Positions 2,613 through 19,279 of a DNA stretch of 47,726 nucleotides are shown one piece after another. Both the position numbers and the translations under genes were made by a program. Numbering within the stretch: position 1 is the stretch's first letter; each line of letters starts with the position of its first letter. This stretch comes from Escherichia phage HC6. Location: sequence record OL362274.1. One strand, written 5' to 3'. The notes beneath the pieces were generated by a model that was given only the letters and a program-made list of their open reading frames with translations, had not been told where the DNA came from and did no database searches.

Positions 2613-2797
2613 TGAGTGTTTATTTCATTCATGCTGAAGTGCTTGATGGTGGTGATGTTGTTACCAAGGTTTGCGCGACATCTACGGCATCAAACGCCAG
2701 TGAAGCGTTTGATTGGTTTTTGGGTTGCGAATTGGTTGTAAAGTACGAAATAAAAGGCTACGACGTCATCATTGATAAACTGGAAAAGGTGGAGTGA
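2612..2797 (+). CDS. hypothetical small protein
   Basis: 61 aa; ATG 2612 overlaps upstream TGA; ends ...KVE* within GGTGGAGTGATG junction. Confidence 0.5.
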   Translation: MSVYFIHAEVLDGGDVVTKVCATSTASNASEAFDWFLGCELVVKYEIKGYDVIIDKLEKVE

Positions 2798-3015
2798 TGA
2801 AAGCTGTCAAAACAATCCTGTTCTGCATCATCAACCCGCACCTGATTGTGATGCTAATCTGCGGCGCCATGCTTATTGGCGCGAGAAAGTCGCTTTATTA
2901 TCTTTCCGATAAGCTGGATGACGCGGCGCGTTACATTCAGAAGATTGATCATAAACTCGGGTCGAAGTCATACCCCGCATGGTTCAGATCGCTTGTTGAT
3001 GATGAGGTGGAGTGA
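2797..3015 (+). CDS. small membrane protein
   Basis: 72 aa; TM-like ILFCIINPHLIVMLICGAMLIGA; TGATG overlap at both ends. Confidence 0.5.
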   Translation: MKAVKTILFCIINPHLIVMLICGAMLIGARKSLYYLSDKLDDAARYIQKIDHKLGSKSYPAWFRSLVDDEVE

Positions 3016-10120: not shown

Positions 10121-10165
10121 TTGACGTTTCTACATCACTTAGTCAATACTTATTGACGTAGATTG
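10121..10165. promoter_or_regulatory. divergent promoter region with paired TCTACRYCA motifs
   Basis: TTGACGTTTCTACATCAC and inverted TTGACGTAGATTG between divergent genes 10093 and 10193. Confidence 0.4.
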
Positions 10166-10450: not shown

Positions 10451-10645
10451 ATGGCGCATGACGAGATGTACGAAAAGTCGTTAATCCAGCGACTGAATGA
10501 AGTTGAACGCACTCGCGAATGGCTGGAGTGCGAGTTGCGAGAGGTGCGAAACCGACTGCAACGCAAGCGCAGTCAGCAGAAAGACGTTATCGACTGGTCC
10601 GGTGATGCACCTAAATTTAACAACATTGGAGAATGGTTGAAATGA
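10451..10645 (+). CDS. hypothetical protein
   Basis: 64 aa, charged, helical-looking. Confidence 0.5.
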   Translation: MAHDEMYEKSLIQRLNEVERTREWLECELREVRNRLQRKRSQQKDVIDWSGDAPKFNNIGEWLK

Positions 10646-10893
10646 GCGCACCACACATGCCAGTGATGAATGAGAACGGATTGCTTGAGTGCCCATGCTG
10701 CGCGTCCAGTGAAATTTATCTGGTTAAAACAGTAGGTGGCTGGAGTTATGTTGAGTGCGACTCATGTTTGCTAAAAACAGAGCATGGTAAGTCACCGGAA
10801 TTGGCAATAAAGACATGGAATCGTCGCAACGGGCACCTCTACACCGCAGAAGACTTCAACCAGGCAGCAGAGGACCGTGATTATGGACTATAA
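10633..10893 (+). CDS. Lar-family restriction alleviation protein-like
   Basis: CPCC...SSEIY...CDSC...AIKTWNRR matches my recollection of the Lar zinc-ribbon pattern; start 10633 or 10642. Confidence 0.55.
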   Translation: MVEMSAPHMPVMNENGLLECPCCASSEIYLVKTVGGWSYVECDSCLLKTEHGKSPELAIKTWNRRNGHLYTAEDFNQAAEDRDYGL

Positions 10894-11371
10894 ATCACAA
10901 ATCATGCGCGTGATTATCAATCATCCTGGTGCAACGCGCGCATACATTGAAAAGCATTGCGGAGGGAAGCATTCAAGCACCACGACGCATCGTCTGCATG
11001 AGATGCTTGCGCTTGGCTTCATTCGTCGCGAGAAGTCAGTGATTCGTGGCGGCAAATGGCAATATAAATATTTCATCTCTGATGATGCGGCTGGTATTGA
11101 TGATGCGATTAAGTGCCATTTACTTGATAACTCTGGCGCAGAGGTGAAAGAAATTAGCGCAGCCACTGGCATTGATTACCGAATCGTGAAAAGCCGCATC
11201 CGCATTATGTTTCATAACGGTGATGTGACGCGAAGCTATGACCACCACAAGAAGCTATGGCGCTATTCATGGCGTGAGCAGGAAGTTAACGTCAGCAACC
11301 TGTTCAATTCACTTCTTCGCAACGCAAGAGGTCAGCATGGGAAAAGCAAAACGCAAGAAGCAAGAGTATGA
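10883..11371 (+). CDS. putative DNA-binding protein (tandem winged-helix-like)
   Basis: 162 aa from ATG 10883; two HTH-like segments; inference only. Confidence 0.5.
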   Translation: MDYKSQIMRVIINHPGATRAYIEKHCGGKHSSTTTHRLHEMLALGFIRREKSVIRGGKWQYKYFISDDAAGIDDAIKCHLLDNSGAEVKEISAATGIDYRIVKSRIRIMFHNGDVTRSYDHHKKLWRYSWREQEVNVSNLFNSLLRNARGQHGKSKTQEARV

Positions 11372-11495: not shown

Positions 11496-11855
11496 ATGAG
11501 ATGGGCTATTAAGCATAAATCTGGCAGGACTCTATTTGTAACATCAGATGAATTTATTGCCAATAACCGTGGAAAGATGGGCTGGATAGTGGAGGAAGTG
11601 AAGATGACGAGCAGAGAGCAGTTTAATAAATGGTTTTATGAATACACCGGGTGCGACCCAAAGGATAGCAGATATGTGAATATGGTCGAGATGTATTGGA
11701 TGGCGTGGCAGGCATCGCGCGCAGCAATTGAAGTTGCAACGCCGTGGCTATGCGGAGATGGTGATAACGATAACGAATGGACTGAAGGCTATAACGATGG
11801 CGTCATGGCGACAGAGAAAGCAATTATCAGTGCAGGCTTAAAGGTGAAAAAATGA
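11496..11855 (+). CDS. hypothetical protein
   Basis: 119 aa track ORF. Confidence 0.55.
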   Translation: MRWAIKHKSGRTLFVTSDEFIANNRGKMGWIVEEVKMTSREQFNKWFYEYTGCDPKDSRYVNMVEMYWMAWQASRAAIEVATPWLCGDGDNDNEWTEGYNDGVMATEKAIISAGLKVKK

Positions 11856-12181
11856 TTATCCAACTAAACGACATTATGAAAGCAGACATCATTCAGCTTG
11901 AAGATTATGACGTGCAACTGGCATTTGAAATTGAAACCGTTGAGCGTCAACTGCAATATGCAGATAAGAAGAGTGATCGTATCTGGCACGAGAAAGCACT
12001 TAAGGCACGCGACCACATGAAACGCACACGAGCACTCATTAAAACCCGACTGGATAAGTTGTATTTTGGCGAAGAAAGAATGATTCACGGGGCGATACTG
12101 GCGCAAATCCGTAAGGAAATGCCAATTGGCAAGTTTATGTCATACGTCCACTGGGCGAAGCAGGAGGCTGGATTGGTATGA
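11852..12181 (+). CDS. hypothetical protein
   Basis: 109 aa track ORF; ATGA overlap with upstream gene. Confidence 0.55.
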   Translation: MIIQLNDIMKADIIQLEDYDVQLAFEIETVERQLQYADKKSDRIWHEKALKARDHMKRTRALIKTRLDKLYFGEERMIHGAILAQIRKEMPIGKFMSYVHWAKQEAGLV

Positions 12182-12363
12182 TGCGCATGTATCAGTGCTA
12201 CAGGTGTGGTGAGTCAAAGGATTGGTATAGATTTAATCCTGGTCAAAAATATTGGACCAGAAAGTGTATTCGTTGTGAGCAATCACCAGTTGGTTCAATG
12301 CCGATTAGGGAAGATTCATCTCACGTGTTTCATAGTCGAAAGATAATGAGGGTATGCAAATGA
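12178..12363 (+). CDS. small zinc-ribbon protein
   Basis: 61 aa with CYRCG...CIRCE two CxxC pairs. Confidence 0.5.
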   Translation: MMRMYQCYRCGESKDWYRFNPGQKYWTRKCIRCEQSPVGSMPIREDSSHVFHSRKIMRVCK

Positions 12364-12506
12364 TTCCATTGCTGTGGATATTATCAGCCTACGCATTCGC
12401 GAGAGTATTTGAGGCTGACACTCTGTACCAGATGATTTGCTATGGCTCTCTGTTCTGTCTTTCAGGTGCTGCACTTGCATTTATGGATGATGTGATTTCA
12501 GACTAA
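12360..12506 (+). CDS. small membrane protein
   Basis: 48 aa hydrophobic; ATGA overlap with upstream stop; below track cutoff. Confidence 0.35.
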   Translation: MIPLLWILSAYAFARVFEADTLYQMICYGSLFCLSGAALAFMDDVISD

Positions 12507-16787: not shown

Positions 16788-17327
16788 CTACAGACGCATA
16801 GGCATAACAACAATCTTCGCAGTCTCGCCAGATGGCGCACTAAGACAGCAAACTGCGGCATTTGTATTTCCATTCAGTTCAAATTTGACACAACAGAATT
16901 TAGGATTAAACAGCTTCGCCACTTTCTCAATATCAACAAGGTATCCAGCATTGAAGCCTATTTCCTCTGCTGCTTTCGTTTCCCTTGGTATAACGTGATC
17001 AATATCAGGGAATCGACCATCAATCTCTTCGCAGATACCAGCACCAACCATTGTGTCCATATGGCCGAAATGATAAGTAACGATTCCAGATTTTGTATCG
17101 ATGATCGCATGGTTATATTTCTTTTTCGGAGACTTGCTCACCTTTACAATCACACTTTCTGTCAGCTTATTGTCATGGCTGCCGCCAATAAATGCGCGAC
17201 GACCGTCAGTTGAGGCAATACGACCATCAGGCATGAAGCAGATGCCATTCAGGTAATACCGCACATCATTGCGAGCCTGAAATATTAATGCTGATTCAAG
17301 TAATAGTTTGCTTATTTTTAGTTTCAT
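16788..17327 (-). CDS. truncated DNA polymerase III beta sliding clamp (DnaN)-like protein
   Basis: 179 aa; DVRYYLNG, STDGRRA, DGRFPD, EIGFN and C-terminal VVMPMRL match E. coli DnaN domains II-III as I recall them; no domain I. Confidence 0.7.
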   Translation of the reverse strand: MKLKISKLLLESALIFQARNDVRYYLNGICFMPDGRIASTDGRRAFIGGSHDNKLTESVIVKVSKSPKKKYNHAIIDTKSGIVTYHFGHMDTMVGAGICEEIDGRFPDIDHVIPRETKAAEEIGFNAGYLVDIEKVAKLFNPKFCCVKFELNGNTNAAVCCLSAPSGETAKIVVMPMRL

Positions 17328-17500: not shown

Positions 17501-17673
17501 CACTTCACCTTAATCATGTGTTGTTTTGCAACCTTCAGGCATTCTTCAAAAATGCCGCCATTCTTAGCGCTCTGATTGCGCTTGTAATACTGAATTGCCA
17601 CATCAATTGCCATCTGGTCGATGTCAGGCAACTTGGTGCGAAGTTGTTTTTCAATGAATTGTTCTGGTGTCAT
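17500..17673 (-). CDS. hypothetical small protein
   Basis: 57 aa (MTPEQFIEKQLRTKLPDIDQ...); TAATG overlap with methyltransferase stop. Confidence 0.4.
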   Translation of the reverse strand: MTPEQFIEKQLRTKLPDIDQMAIDVAIQYYKRNQSAKNGGIFEECLKVAKQHMIKVK

Positions 17674-18473
17674 TAAACGGACCTCATGAATGCTTTAATG
17701 AATTCTTCTGCGACTTGTGGAACTATGGCATTACCATAACCGCGCAATCGTCCCACTCTTGCGGATACCCCATGAGTTGCCTCGCAAAATCCGCCTGGTA
17801 TGACTCTAGTTTCCTTATCTGCTCCATGGTTGGGTTTCCATGAATCCCATAAACATGAAGCCACATCTGGCGATAAAGAGTATCGTTCCTGAATTTCCCG
17901 TCCTTTCTGTAAAATGACTTGCTGAGATTCCCGTAATCCTTCCATCCTCGCGCCGTTGGTGTCGCCCATCCTCGCGCCAAAGATGATTCTTTTCCTTTCC
18001 TGTGGAGAGCCGACGCTGCAAGCTGGCAATACTGACGCCCCGCAGGCGTAGCCTTTGTCTTCCAGGTTAAGGAATACAAAATCGAGCCAGTGCTTCCCAA
18101 TTGCTGCTGCAACCTGCTCTCCAAACAGCAATTCAGGCTTGCACTCTCTGATGAGCCTGAGAAATGCTGGGGCAAGGTGTCGATCGTCGTCAAATCCGAG
18201 AGACTTACCGGCAACGCTAAACGGCTGGCAAGGTGGTGATCCTGTCCAGAGTCGAGTGCTTTCTGGTATTCCTGCCAGCTGGAGTGCAAGGGGCCACCCT
18301 CCGATTCCGGCAAAGAAGTGACACTGTGTAAATCCTTCCAGGTCTGAAGGGGTGACTTCGGTGATTGATCGTTCATCGACATATCCGTAAGGAATTAGTT
18401 TATTGTTAATTAATTCACGCAGCCATGCCGCTGCGCCCTTGTCCCACTCATTGTAATAGTGGACCATCATCAC
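17673..18473 (-). CDS. DNA (cytosine-5)-methyltransferase, compact
   Basis: 266 aa; FFAGIGG (motif I), PPCQPFS (motif IV), GEQV (motif VI), QERKR (motif VIII), GNAIV (motif X); little room for a target-recognition domain. Confidence 0.75.
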   Translation of the reverse strand: MMMVHYYNEWDKGAAAWLRELINNKLIPYGYVDERSITEVTPSDLEGFTQCHFFAGIGGWPLALQLAGIPESTRLWTGSPPCQPFSVAGKSLGFDDDRHLAPAFLRLIRECKPELLFGEQVAAAIGKHWLDFVFLNLEDKGYACGASVLPACSVGSPQERKRIIFGARMGDTNGARMEGLRESQQVILQKGREIQERYSLSPDVASCLWDSWKPNHGADKETRVIPGGFCEATHGVSARVGRLRGYGNAIVPQVAEEFIKAFMRSV

Positions 18474-19279
18474 ATCTTCTCCAGAATTGCCATCACCTCG
18501 TGAATATCAGCAACAGGAATCTTGATAAACTCCTCATTCTCTGCCACTACATGACCAGCAAGAAGAATAACGTGGTCAGCTGGCTTCAGTAACTCAATCA
18601 GTCGGTCTACTGGCTTAATCTTTTTCGACTTAAGCACCTTCGCCGTTACCTTATCCTTGCCTTGCGCCTTCGCTTCTTCGACTGCCTCGTCGATAACTTT
18701 AACCGCATCATCGCCATGTTCGCGAGTTACTGCTACGGCATTTGCATAGCTGATTTGCCCTGCACTGATTCGCGCTTTTACTTCGGCTGGCACATCACCC
18801 AGTGACAGGTGCATCTGCACGTCAGATACTGAACGGCCGACCTTTTTGGCGATTTCCTCATTGGTCCAGCCAAAGCCTTTCAGTCGCGTGTAAGCCTTTG
18901 CGCGCTCAAATGGGTCAAGCTGCTTACCCTGACTGGATGACACCATGAAGGCAATTTTATCGGCCTCATCGCCAGTGAAATCCTTACACTCAATACGAAC
19001 GATTGGTGCGCCGCGCTCAATGGCACGCAATGCGCCTAGATAGCGATGCTGACCATCAAGAATGCGGATTCCCTTCTCATCAGGAATAACTGTTAATGCT
19101 GGTAATGGCTGACCTGATTCCCAGCACTGCGCGAAATACTCCACATGCTGCTCGTCTGCTTCGCGGATGTTGTATCCCGGCTCCAGATAGATTTGCTCCA
19201 CTGGCACGAGATAGGTTTTGTTAACAGCGATTCCGTTGCGCGTTTCTTTGTCTGAATAGATTTTGCTAAGTGTTTTCAT
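18470..19279 (-). CDS. ParB-like nuclease domain protein
   Basis: 269 aa from ATG 19279; ILDGQHRY ParB/sulfiredoxin-type motif plus HTH-like EIAKKVGRSVSDV. Confidence 0.7.
   Translation of the reverse strand: MKTLSKIYSDKETRNGIAVNKTYLVPVEQIYLEPGYNIREADEQHVEYFAQCWESGQPLPALTVIPDEKGIRILDGQHRYLGALRAIERGAPIVRIECKDFTGDEADKIAFMVSSSQGKQLDPFERAKAYTRLKGFGWTNEEIAKKVGRSVSDVQMHLSLGDVPAEVKARISAGQISYANAVAVTREHGDDAVKVIDEAVEEAKAQGKDKVTAKVLKSKKIKPVDRLIELLKPADHVILLAGHVVAENEEFIKIPVADIHEVMAILEKM

Follow-up and report, generated by a model that had tools for sequence, protein, structure and literature searches.

Lar, also known as RalR, is a 64-aa protein (b1348) encoded next to recET in Rac, a prophage of Escherichia coli K-12. 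King and Murray reportedly found in 1995 that Rac Lar relieves EcoKI restriction and boosts modification, and to our knowledge it is the only member of the Lar family that has been studied for restriction alleviation. Ral of phage lambda is a functional analogue of Lar. Here, we describe a Lar-like gene in the 47,726-nt genome of Escherichia phage HC6 (OL362274.1; this whole stretch is called the window below), which corresponds to the complete genome of phage 6947 (ON637251.1; window position = record position + 23). Our analysis of this gene and its relatives revealed a predicted zinc-ribbon protein in which a hypervariable core lies between a constant N-terminal lead and a constant acidic tail, and sequence comparison indicates that the cores move between phages of different host genera.

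Lar and Ral are considered to raise de novo methylation by EcoKI, but how they do so has not been explained (PMC3177214). The same Rac protein, under the name RalR, was reported to be a non-specific DNase toxin that cuts methylated and unmethylated DNA (Guo et al. 2014; PMC4041452). The Lar-like gene 32 of the Felixounavirus Bas63, studied by PhageMaP, is conditionally essential depending on the host, also on hosts without an intact type I system (PMC11482910). Since the mechanism of Lar is unexplained, a DNase activity has been reported and the Bas63 effect extends to hosts without intact type I systems, the family name is a weak guide to function. Bas63 gene 32 resembles the gene described here as a Lar-family gene of a virulent phage, and its host-dependent fitness effect parallels the retention of gene 6 in Skatevirus seszw described below. 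It belongs to another phage family, however, and no hypervariable-core pattern has been reported for it; because it is described as 90% homologous to Lar, its product is a much closer relative of Lar than the window protein is.

The window protein shares with Lar/RalR the PF14354 domain, the CxxC...CxxC ribbon and a helix ending in WNxR, and both are small single-domain proteins of mobile elements. The window protein, whose function is putative, exceeds Lar by 19 aa: it has a lead of 8 aa at the N-terminus and a conserved acidic tail of 21 aa, both absent from Lar, and its core is a swappable hypervariable cassette. Its gene lies between the lysis and head genes of a virulent siphovirus of the Skatevirus cluster, in contrast to the prophage setting of Lar. 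The activity that can be proposed for the window protein is that of lambda Ral, namely relief of type IA restriction and enhanced modification (PMC3177214), although we found no sequence or fold relationship to Ral, and the Pfam, PHROG and NCBIfam scans of the window protein returned no Ral family. The nearest relatives are the Lar-like proteins of the Skatevirus cluster (PHROG 599: Skate gp029, seszw gene 6, Bas79_0028 and Bas81_0033) and Klebsiella KP591P1 gp53, which have the same lead, zinc ribbon, WNTR and acidic tail, in the same slot with the same neighbours. The window protein differs from them in reading CPCC for CPFC and WNRR for WNTR, and its core is only 29–39% identical to the common core types.

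The Lar-like gene and its product

The original prediction had placed a Lar-like gene on the plus strand at 10633–10893, with the motifs CPCC, SEIY, CDSC and AIKTWNRR. This open reading frame (ORF) is real, and all four motifs occur in its translation (...ECPCCASSEIYLVKTVGGWSYVECDSCLLKTEHGKSPELAIKTWNRRNGHLY...). The predicted stop was correct but the start probably was not: 10633 is an in-frame ATG upstream of the likely start, which is almost certainly the second ATG, at 10642. Four observations lead to this assignment. In an ATGA, this codon and the stop of the preceding ORF overlap; a GGAG lies 10 nt 5′ of the ATG at 10642; the phage 6947 record annotates a coding sequence (CDS) at record positions 10619–10870, of which 10619 equals window position 10642; and the equivalent Met starts all homologues in the alignments. 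The product from this start has 83 aa, and its stop codon is TAA. The gene sits in a tightly packed, same-strand cluster, in which the next gene starts at 10883 and overlaps it by 11 nt, and translation of the upstream ORF and of the Lar-like gene may be coupled at the ATGA.

The phage 6947 record labels the gene only “hypothetical protein”, which is the one point in favour of a chance ORF or a decayed remnant. The probability of this explanation is practically nil: it is refuted by the Pfam and PHROG profile matches, synteny kept in about 200 phages, purifying selection on homologues in this frame (pN/pS 0.16–0.26), a confidently predicted fold, and the coupling of both start and stop to the neighbouring genes. 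The Lar label is itself routine. RefSeq and BASEL homologues are named “Lar-like restriction alleviation protein”, Pharokka and RefSeq having already put the label on them, and only the source record of the phage missed it.

The assignment to the Lar family made in the original prediction agrees with Pfam, PHROG, BLASTP and fold matches. In the profile search against the Lar family model that had been suggested as a check, PF14354 (Lar_restr_allev) scored 36.3 bits, above the gathering score of 28.6 (E 6.6e-9, profile positions 3–58 of 58). PHROG 599, “Lar-like restriction alleviation protein”, matched at 3e-15, and BLASTP aligned E. coli K-12 Lar/RalR with 30% identity across 54 aa (E 2e-9). 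In contrast, the NCBIfam subfamily model TIGR03655 (anti_R_Lar) gave 30.0 bits, under its cut-off of 39.6, and the RalR equivalog NF007260 gave 21.5 bits, far under its cut-off of 113. Because PF14354 and PHROG 599 were passed but both NCBIfam cut-offs were missed, the protein is classified by profile as a member of the broad Lar family and not as an orthologue of Lar/RalR.

No variation is seen in the four cysteines C17/C20 and C39/C42 (CxxC...CxxC), or in the W, N and last R of W59-N60-R61-R62, across the 60 homologues and E. coli Lar, with which all four Cys and W-N-x-R align. An AlphaFold2 model shows two β-hairpins and a helix (residues 52–60), with pLDDT values of 90–94 for residues 11–60 and low values of 57 and 45 in the C-terminal tail. 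Foldseek against BFVD returned “Restriction alleviation protein, Lar family” as the top match (E 3.1e-4, probability 1.0), and most of the top 25 matches were Lar-annotated. The product is thus a predicted zinc ribbon with two CxxC knuckles and putative zinc binding.

In an exhaustive profile search, the wider Lar family comprised 3,991 representatives. Many of these carry tandem arrays of two to five Lar domains per polypeptide, such as P0011 (295 aa), P0015 (431 aa) and P0021 (223 aa), an architecture that is undiscussed in the literature we consulted on Lar-like proteins. Coverage of the C-terminal tail was confined to about eight of the best 150 representatives. Within PHROG 599, a Skatevirus-type subset is marked by the lead PMMN.EGLLECP.C, the tail NGHLYTA[DE]DF... 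and a position flanked by phrog_15697 and phrog_1687, and all three fit the window gene. PADLOC defence models matched neither the protein nor either of its neighbours.

Constant ends and a hypervariable core

The first alignment comprised the few word-sharing homologues among 5.8 billion proteins; their ends were near-invariant, while the middle was scrambled. The same pattern of constant ends and variable core holds in 59 related IMG/VR loci, all from phage genomes of about 45–49 kb. Among 28 close relatives, the upstream gene is 87–98% and the downstream gene 87–97% identical in amino acid sequence, whereas the Lar-like gene is 48–60% identical in all but one, at 96%. Nucleotide identity between different cores is 57–65%, which is what shuffled sequence gives (58.5 ± 2.3). 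With single-linkage clustering at a threshold of 60% aa identity, the 60 sequences fall into at least 20 core types, and only the four Cys, T/S46 and WNxR are conserved across all types.

Relaxed constraint was considered as a source of this variability and was ruled out, because pooled pN/pS within core types is 0.26, where synonymous sites are unsaturated. Since each type is under purifying selection, the core types are, as judged from substitution patterns, functional alternatives and not products of decay. Likewise, the lead and tail are conserved at the protein level (pN/pS 0.16–0.20), which argues that they are functional peptide segments and more than conserved DNA. As the tail lies in a region of low model confidence, it is probably an interaction motif; related tails occur in P0012, P0014 and P0016. 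We also considered the core as the target of a diversity-generating retroelement and rejected this, as the window holds no second copy of the gene in DNA or protein, and no reverse transcriptase is found among its 89 annotated features.

The window allele is rare. Its core was found in phages 6947, HC8A and HC6 and in the IMG/VR contig L003, and a 71%-identical core occurs in P0002 within a Klebsiella-type frame. At 10690–10701 this core type has CPCC where nearly all relatives read CPFC, and the extra C19 is also present in P0002, P0003 and P0010.

Exchange of cores between phage lineages

The slot between phrog_15697 and the winged-helix gene is fixed in every counted Skatevirus-cluster phage and in the Klebsiella relatives. 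Two lineages occupy it, a Salmonella/E. coli type (tail ...DDFNQAAEERDYGL) and a Klebsiella type (tail ...DDYKQDAMERANGL), and their flanking genes are only 36–53% identical in amino acid sequence. In spite of this divergence, nearly identical cores are found on both sides. A 37-aa core is identical in the Klebsiella pneumoniae phages KP591P1, KP591P3 and VLCpiS13f and 97% identical in the Salmonella Skatevirus vB_CECAV_048, and the cores of loci L020 and L045 agree at 95% of their nucleotides, against 61–68% in the flanking genes. The window core is 100% identical in nucleotides to that of L003, with flanks at 88%.

The extent of one exchange was resolved in a pair of Salmonella and Klebsiella loci (L063/L064), in which sliding identity shows a 96–100% patch within a 30–60% background. 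Only 4 mismatches fall in gene nt 22–188, a tract of about 170 bp with 97.6% identity, followed by 13 in nt 189–249. Sequence comparison therefore indicates that cores move between phages, even those of different host genera, as conversion tracts of less than 200 bp that break within the constant ends, and the short high-identity tracts amid divergent flanks point to the constant ends as the crossover points.

In many relatives, an additional ORF of some 72 aa (seszw gene 5) separates the upstream ORF from the Lar-like gene (L065 of seszw, 1212–1430; many IMG/VR loci, approximately 2784–3000). It is absent from phage 6947 and present in L003, which has the same core as the window, and hence does not track with core type.

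A homing-endonuclease cassette at the tail

The Lar ORF of Bas78 has a diverged tail at its end (GGFVYSNADYEDINNEVRS), and an HNH endonuclease ORF that terminates in the canonical tail (...NHGHLYTAEDFNQAAEERDL) comes directly after it. The HNH cassette has been inserted after ...WNTRGG, bringing a diverged replacement tail and leaving the original tail fused to the endonuclease ORF. Cassettes were located in Bas78 (L068, 2465–3206), in the Klebsiella-type loci L058 (3001–3760) and L059, and in KpnS_VR6602, where the HNH gene adjoins the Lar-like gene directly. The cassette of L058 and L059 is 88% identical in amino acid sequence to that of Bas78 and lies at the same codon, fused to a Klebsiella-type tail. 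An HNH protein with at least 90% identity is shared by Bas78 (from E. coli), 64795_sal3 (Salmonella), KpnS_VR6602 and MK54 (both Klebsiella). In roughly 14 of the 59 loci, further HNH genes occur no more than about 1 kb from the Lar-like gene.

The insertion point, at about gene nt 179–185, is no more than about 10 nt from the 3′ end of the exchanged tract (first mismatch at nt 189). These positions suggest that homing is directed at the conserved tail-coding DNA and that repair of the break would co-convert the adjacent core. A group I or II intron was rejected as an explanation of the insert, which is almost wholly ORF over its length of about 490 bp and gave nothing real in Rfam at E ≤ 1. 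An intein was rejected because the Lar ORF terminates ahead of the HNH ORF.

Free-standing homing endonuclease genes that split or abut their target gene and co-convert flanking markers are represented by the T-even mob and seg genes, and the “genes in pieces” of Aeh1 nrdA are a case in which such a gene splits its target. The Skatevirus-type cassette resembles these systems in that an HNH gene lies at one defined codon of a conserved target, with the same cassette in divergent genomes and a short high-identity tract adjoining the site. It differs in carrying its own diverged tail of the target gene while the old tail is fused to the endonuclease ORF, and in that the co-converted marker would be a hypervariable core; cleavage is putative here. 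The allele of phage 6947 is uninterrupted and free of the endonuclease, so that the window phage lacks the cassette. Homing-endonuclease insertion is also a concrete candidate mechanism for very short mosaic tracts in phage genomes.

We found no account of this architecture and its evolutionary behaviour in the literature that we searched on Lar-like proteins, PF14354, Skatevirus and Guernseyvirinae. This applies to the tail, the swappable hypervariable core and the homing site, and equally to the discrepancy with the restriction sensitivity seen in relatives (see below).

Function of the Lar-like protein

Constant ends combined with discrete, constrained cores that cross genera are what an arms race would be expected to produce in a specificity determinant. 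Our preferred reading, which is tentative and falls somewhat short of an even chance, is that the gene encodes a small, allele-specific counter-defence binding protein. Such a protein would bind a polymorphic host target, for which type I restriction-modification (R-M) is the only precedent, by analogy with Lar. The variable core would carry the target specificity and set which variant is recognised, and the constant WNxR helix and tail would do a common step: they would either engage a conserved partner or shift the enzyme to methylation. Diversity would be maintained by selection in favour of rare or matching alleles, and homing-endonuclease breaks in the tail-coding DNA would help to spread cores among co-infecting phages. 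The window phage has a rare core type and no endonuclease insertion. Also in favour of this reading are the Lar-family profile and fold matches, the purifying selection within core types, the retention of the gene in seszw, the host-dependent importance of Bas63 gene 32 and the type I sites kept in the genome.

The original prediction had read the gene as a plain anti-restriction factor. In this explanation, the protein is a Lar orthologue that relieves restriction and enhances modification by enzymes of the EcoKI family (type IA) as Rac Lar does, and the variation of the core is functionally meaningless. The Pfam and PHROG matches are in its favour, and so is the 30% identity to Lar, in which all four Cys and WNxR are shared, as is the belief that Lar and Ral boost de novo methylation by EcoKI (PMC3177214). 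In addition, the genome would benefit, as its type I sites are kept: the window contains 4 EcoKI sites (7.0 ± 2.6 expected) and 18 EcoBI sites (TGAN8TGCT; 10.8 ± 3.5 in shuffled sequence, with 4 of 100 shuffles reaching 18). Over the whole window, comparison with shuffled sequence showed no avoidance of EcoKI or EcoBI sites, and the phage is, as far as its sequence tells, a potential type I substrate. One EcoBI site lies within the Lar-like gene itself, at 10671–10685.

In contrast, relatives with the gene are not protected as a plain Lar orthologue would suggest. The Lar-like gene was confirmed in Bas78, Bas79 and Bas81. For Bas78, the efficiency of plating is 0.02–0.03 on EcoKI (one site) and 2–6e-4 on EcoCFT_I (3 sites); for Bas77, Bas79 and Bas80, it is 0.03–0.2 on EcoKI (one site each) and 1e-4 to 1e-3 on EcoCFT_I (PMC11990801 S1 Data). 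Strong general protection against type I enzymes is thus excluded for the tested relatives, and alleviation may be partial or allele-specific. The scores under the TIGR03655 cut-off and far under that of the RalR equivalog also argue against this explanation, as does the importance of the Bas63 gene on hosts without an intact type I system, and at least 20 individually constrained cores are hard to square with one conserved target surface. We therefore regard a plain Lar orthologue as unlikely.

The original prediction had further seen layered protection, together with a methyltransferase operon. The methylase gene is real, but it is neither adjacent to the Lar-like gene nor in the same transcription unit: the C5-cytosine methyltransferase gene (17673–18470, minus strand; PF00145 79.6 bits, phrog_363 1e-74) is 7 kb away, on the other strand and in a different gene cluster. 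As the mechanism of the one studied family member is unexplained, a DNase activity has been reported for it and relatives stay sensitive to restriction, the label “layered anti-restriction” is unjustified. The methyltransferase, at 265 aa, is short for its family, and PF00145 matches residues 69–171 only. Its gene lies directly downstream of a ParB-like helix-turn-helix (HTH) gene (18470–19279, minus strand) and looks like an insertion in phage 6947, since seszw has the ParB-like gene but no methylase there.

A non-specific DNase toxin of the RalR type, acting in host DNA damage or as part of a toxin-antitoxin pair, is very improbable. The reported cleavage of methylated and unmethylated DNA by E. 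coli RalR (= Lar) (PMC4041452) and the NCBIfam RalR match would agree with it, but that match is weak, at 21.5 bits against a cut-off of 113. No acidic/histidine catalytic constellation is conserved across core types, no nuclease appeared in the fold searches, and a zinc ribbon of 83 aa whose core is hypervariable would make an unlikely enzyme. The hallmarks of the RalR/RalA system are also missing. In Rac the gene adjoins recT and ralA, whereas here it lies in the gene cluster of a virulent siphovirus; the Rfam scan of the whole window gave a tRNA only, with no known RNA family near the gene and no RalA-like RNA detected, although whether Rfam holds a RalA model was unchecked.

Data on retention come from Skatevirus seszw, which was subjected to CRISPR-based genome reduction with deposition of the mutant genomes (PMC9825161). 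We inferred the retention of its Lar-like gene (gene 6) from these deposited genomes. Among records at least 99% identical to seszw, 75 carry gene 6 and 72 carry the major coat gene, but the winged-helix gene 7 occurs in just 32; the Lar-like gene is kept in all counted genome-reduced mutants, while neighbouring genes are deleted. In the smallest mutant examined, seszw_300S, which retains 53 of 81 genes in 36,991 bp, genes 80, 1, 3, 4, 7 and 9 are gone and 5, 6, 8 and 10 remain. By the criteria of that study, genes absent from isolated mutants are “non-essential”, a class outside which gene 6 falls, although a rare deletion of genes 3–10 was detected in seszw populations (PMC9825161). The retained element could also be cis-acting and lie in the constant ends.

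This retention is what a phage-internal housekeeping or regulatory zinc-ribbon protein would show, for example a partner in transcription, replication or packaging. The function would then reside in the lead, WNxR helix and tail, the core would be a scaffold with co-adapted “fold solutions”, and its diversity and exchange would be by-products of homing-endonuclease recombination. Besides the retention in genome-reduced seszw with loss of its neighbours, records with the Lar-like gene at this position number no fewer than those with the coat gene of the cluster (201 versus 163), constraint is strongest in the constant parts, HNH genes lie nearby in about 14 of the 59 loci with one inserted in the gene, and relatives are sensitive to R-M systems. 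However, the translationally linked winged-helix neighbour is dispensable and shows no co-variation with core type, and the only tested family members suggest host-dependent roles. Moreover, neighbouring genes under the same recombination remain about 90% identical while the cores are at random-level similarity, which indicates long-term maintenance of many types at this spot. We consider a housekeeping role unlikely, if slightly less so than a plain Lar orthologue.

Several points also weigh against a counter-defence binding protein, the reading that we prefer. The protein is below the cut-off of the TIGR03655 anti-restriction subfamily. Among solved structures, in which no member of the family is represented, the profile search of PDB sequences found generic zinc ribbons only (best E 0.018) and Foldseek against PDB found nothing at E ≤ 1e-3; as neither search gave an informative structure, no binding surface can be argued and the fold gives no functional clue. 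The link between tract boundary and insertion site comes from one well-resolved pair, and homing-endonuclease-driven recombination alone could account for the exchange, with no need for selection on specificity. In seszw, the gene was kept over 300 passages on one host by a phage that was already host-modified, unlike a pure anti-restriction accessory gene. Such single-host retention is compatible with a housekeeping role and, since lambda ral mutants are modified less efficiently, with a modification-enhancing role as well. Finally, relatives with Lar-like genes are restricted 10- to 50-fold by EcoKI and 10^3- to 10^4-fold by EcoCFT_I, results that concern other core alleles and have no knock-out control (PMC11990801).

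A more far-reaching form of the counter-defence reading is possible but doubtful. In this form, the Lar-like locus of Skatevirus-type phages would be a natural specificity-cassette system, in which a constant effector frame carries one of at least 20 cores, each tuned to another variant of a host defence that is polymorphic. The cores would be traded among E. coli, Salmonella and Klebsiella phages as tracts of less than 200 bp and mobilised with the help of a homing endonuclease that targets the tail-coding sequence. Candidate targets are type I R-M families or subunits, or a sensor to be evaded. If this is true, the alleles are a ready toolkit for what Lar/Ral proteins bind and how they act. 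The allelic series and the tractable relatives make the question of the Lar/Ral mechanism testable by core swapping: Bas77–81 of BASEL grow on E. coli K-12, and seszw has a gene-essentiality map.

Genomic features and neighbouring genes

The features of the locus are collected in Table 1. For Bas78 of the BASEL collection, phage 6947 is given as the closest relative (PMC11990801, supplementary file 2).

Table 1. Features at the Lar-like locus of the window, with Nei-Gojobori estimates of pN and pS where available
Feature	Position	Strand	pN	pS	Evidence
Lar-family zinc-ribbon gene, 83 codons + TAA	10642..10893	+			ORF; GenBank CDS; PF14354 36.3 bits; phrog_599 3e-15
Translation-start context: GGAG 10628-10631, ATGA 10642-10645	10628..10645	+			sequence
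Constant N-terminal lead, codons 1-20 (MSAPHMPVMNENGLLECPCC), with first knuckle C17-P-C-C20 (10690-10701)	10642..10701	+	0.103	0.511	alignments
Hypervariable core, codons 21-58, with second knuckle C39-D-S-C42 (10756-10767)	10702..10815	+	0.479	0.727 (saturated)	pN and pS between types
WNRR, Lar-family signature (WNxR) closing predicted helix	10816..10827	+			alignments; helix 52-60 in AlphaFold2 model
Constant acidic C-terminal tail NGHLYTAEDFNQAAEDRDYGL, beyond Lar domain	10828..10890	+	0.067	0.416	
Stretch matched by PF14354 (aa 14-63 of 83)	10681..10830	+			Pfam scan
Segment equivalent to exchanged tract (gene nt 22-188 in L063/L064)	10663..10832	+			mismatch counts
Position equivalent to HNH insertion point of Bas78, L058, L059 and KpnS_VR6602	10822..10834	+			alignments
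Upstream coupled ORF, 64 aa, coiled-coil-like, phrog_15697	10451..10645	+	0.044	0.456	ORF, PHROG; 87-98% aa identity in close clade
Downstream two-domain winged-helix ORF, 11-nt overlap	10883..11371	+	0.048	0.356	phrog_1687 MarR-like 1.9e-58; dispensable in seszw

The promoter and terminator scan gave TTGACG-18-AATACT at 10121–10150 ahead of the cluster, with a number of matches not above that in shuffled sequence. Residues 65–137 of the winged-helix protein also have a weaker match to the “Ren-like exclusion protein” (phrog_142), and its homologue in seszw is deleted in more than half of the genome-reduced mutants. The next gene (11496–11855, plus strand; phrog_343) is strongly mosaic in close relatives, with 35–94% aa identity. 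By sequence comparison, the whole cluster of small genes is a recombination-rich region.

Two annotations elsewhere in the window differ from the record. A 61-aa ORF at 12178–12363 (plus strand) has a strong match to NinD (PF17466, 74.4 bits, cut-off 35) and is unannotated in GenBank, which has only a CDS at window positions 12360–12506. The gene at 16788–17327 (minus strand) is labelled “DNA polymerase III beta subunit”; this label is probably wrong, since both PHROGs (phrog_3007, 4.5e-58) and the RefSeq homologue of seszw identify a RusA-like Holliday junction resolvase.

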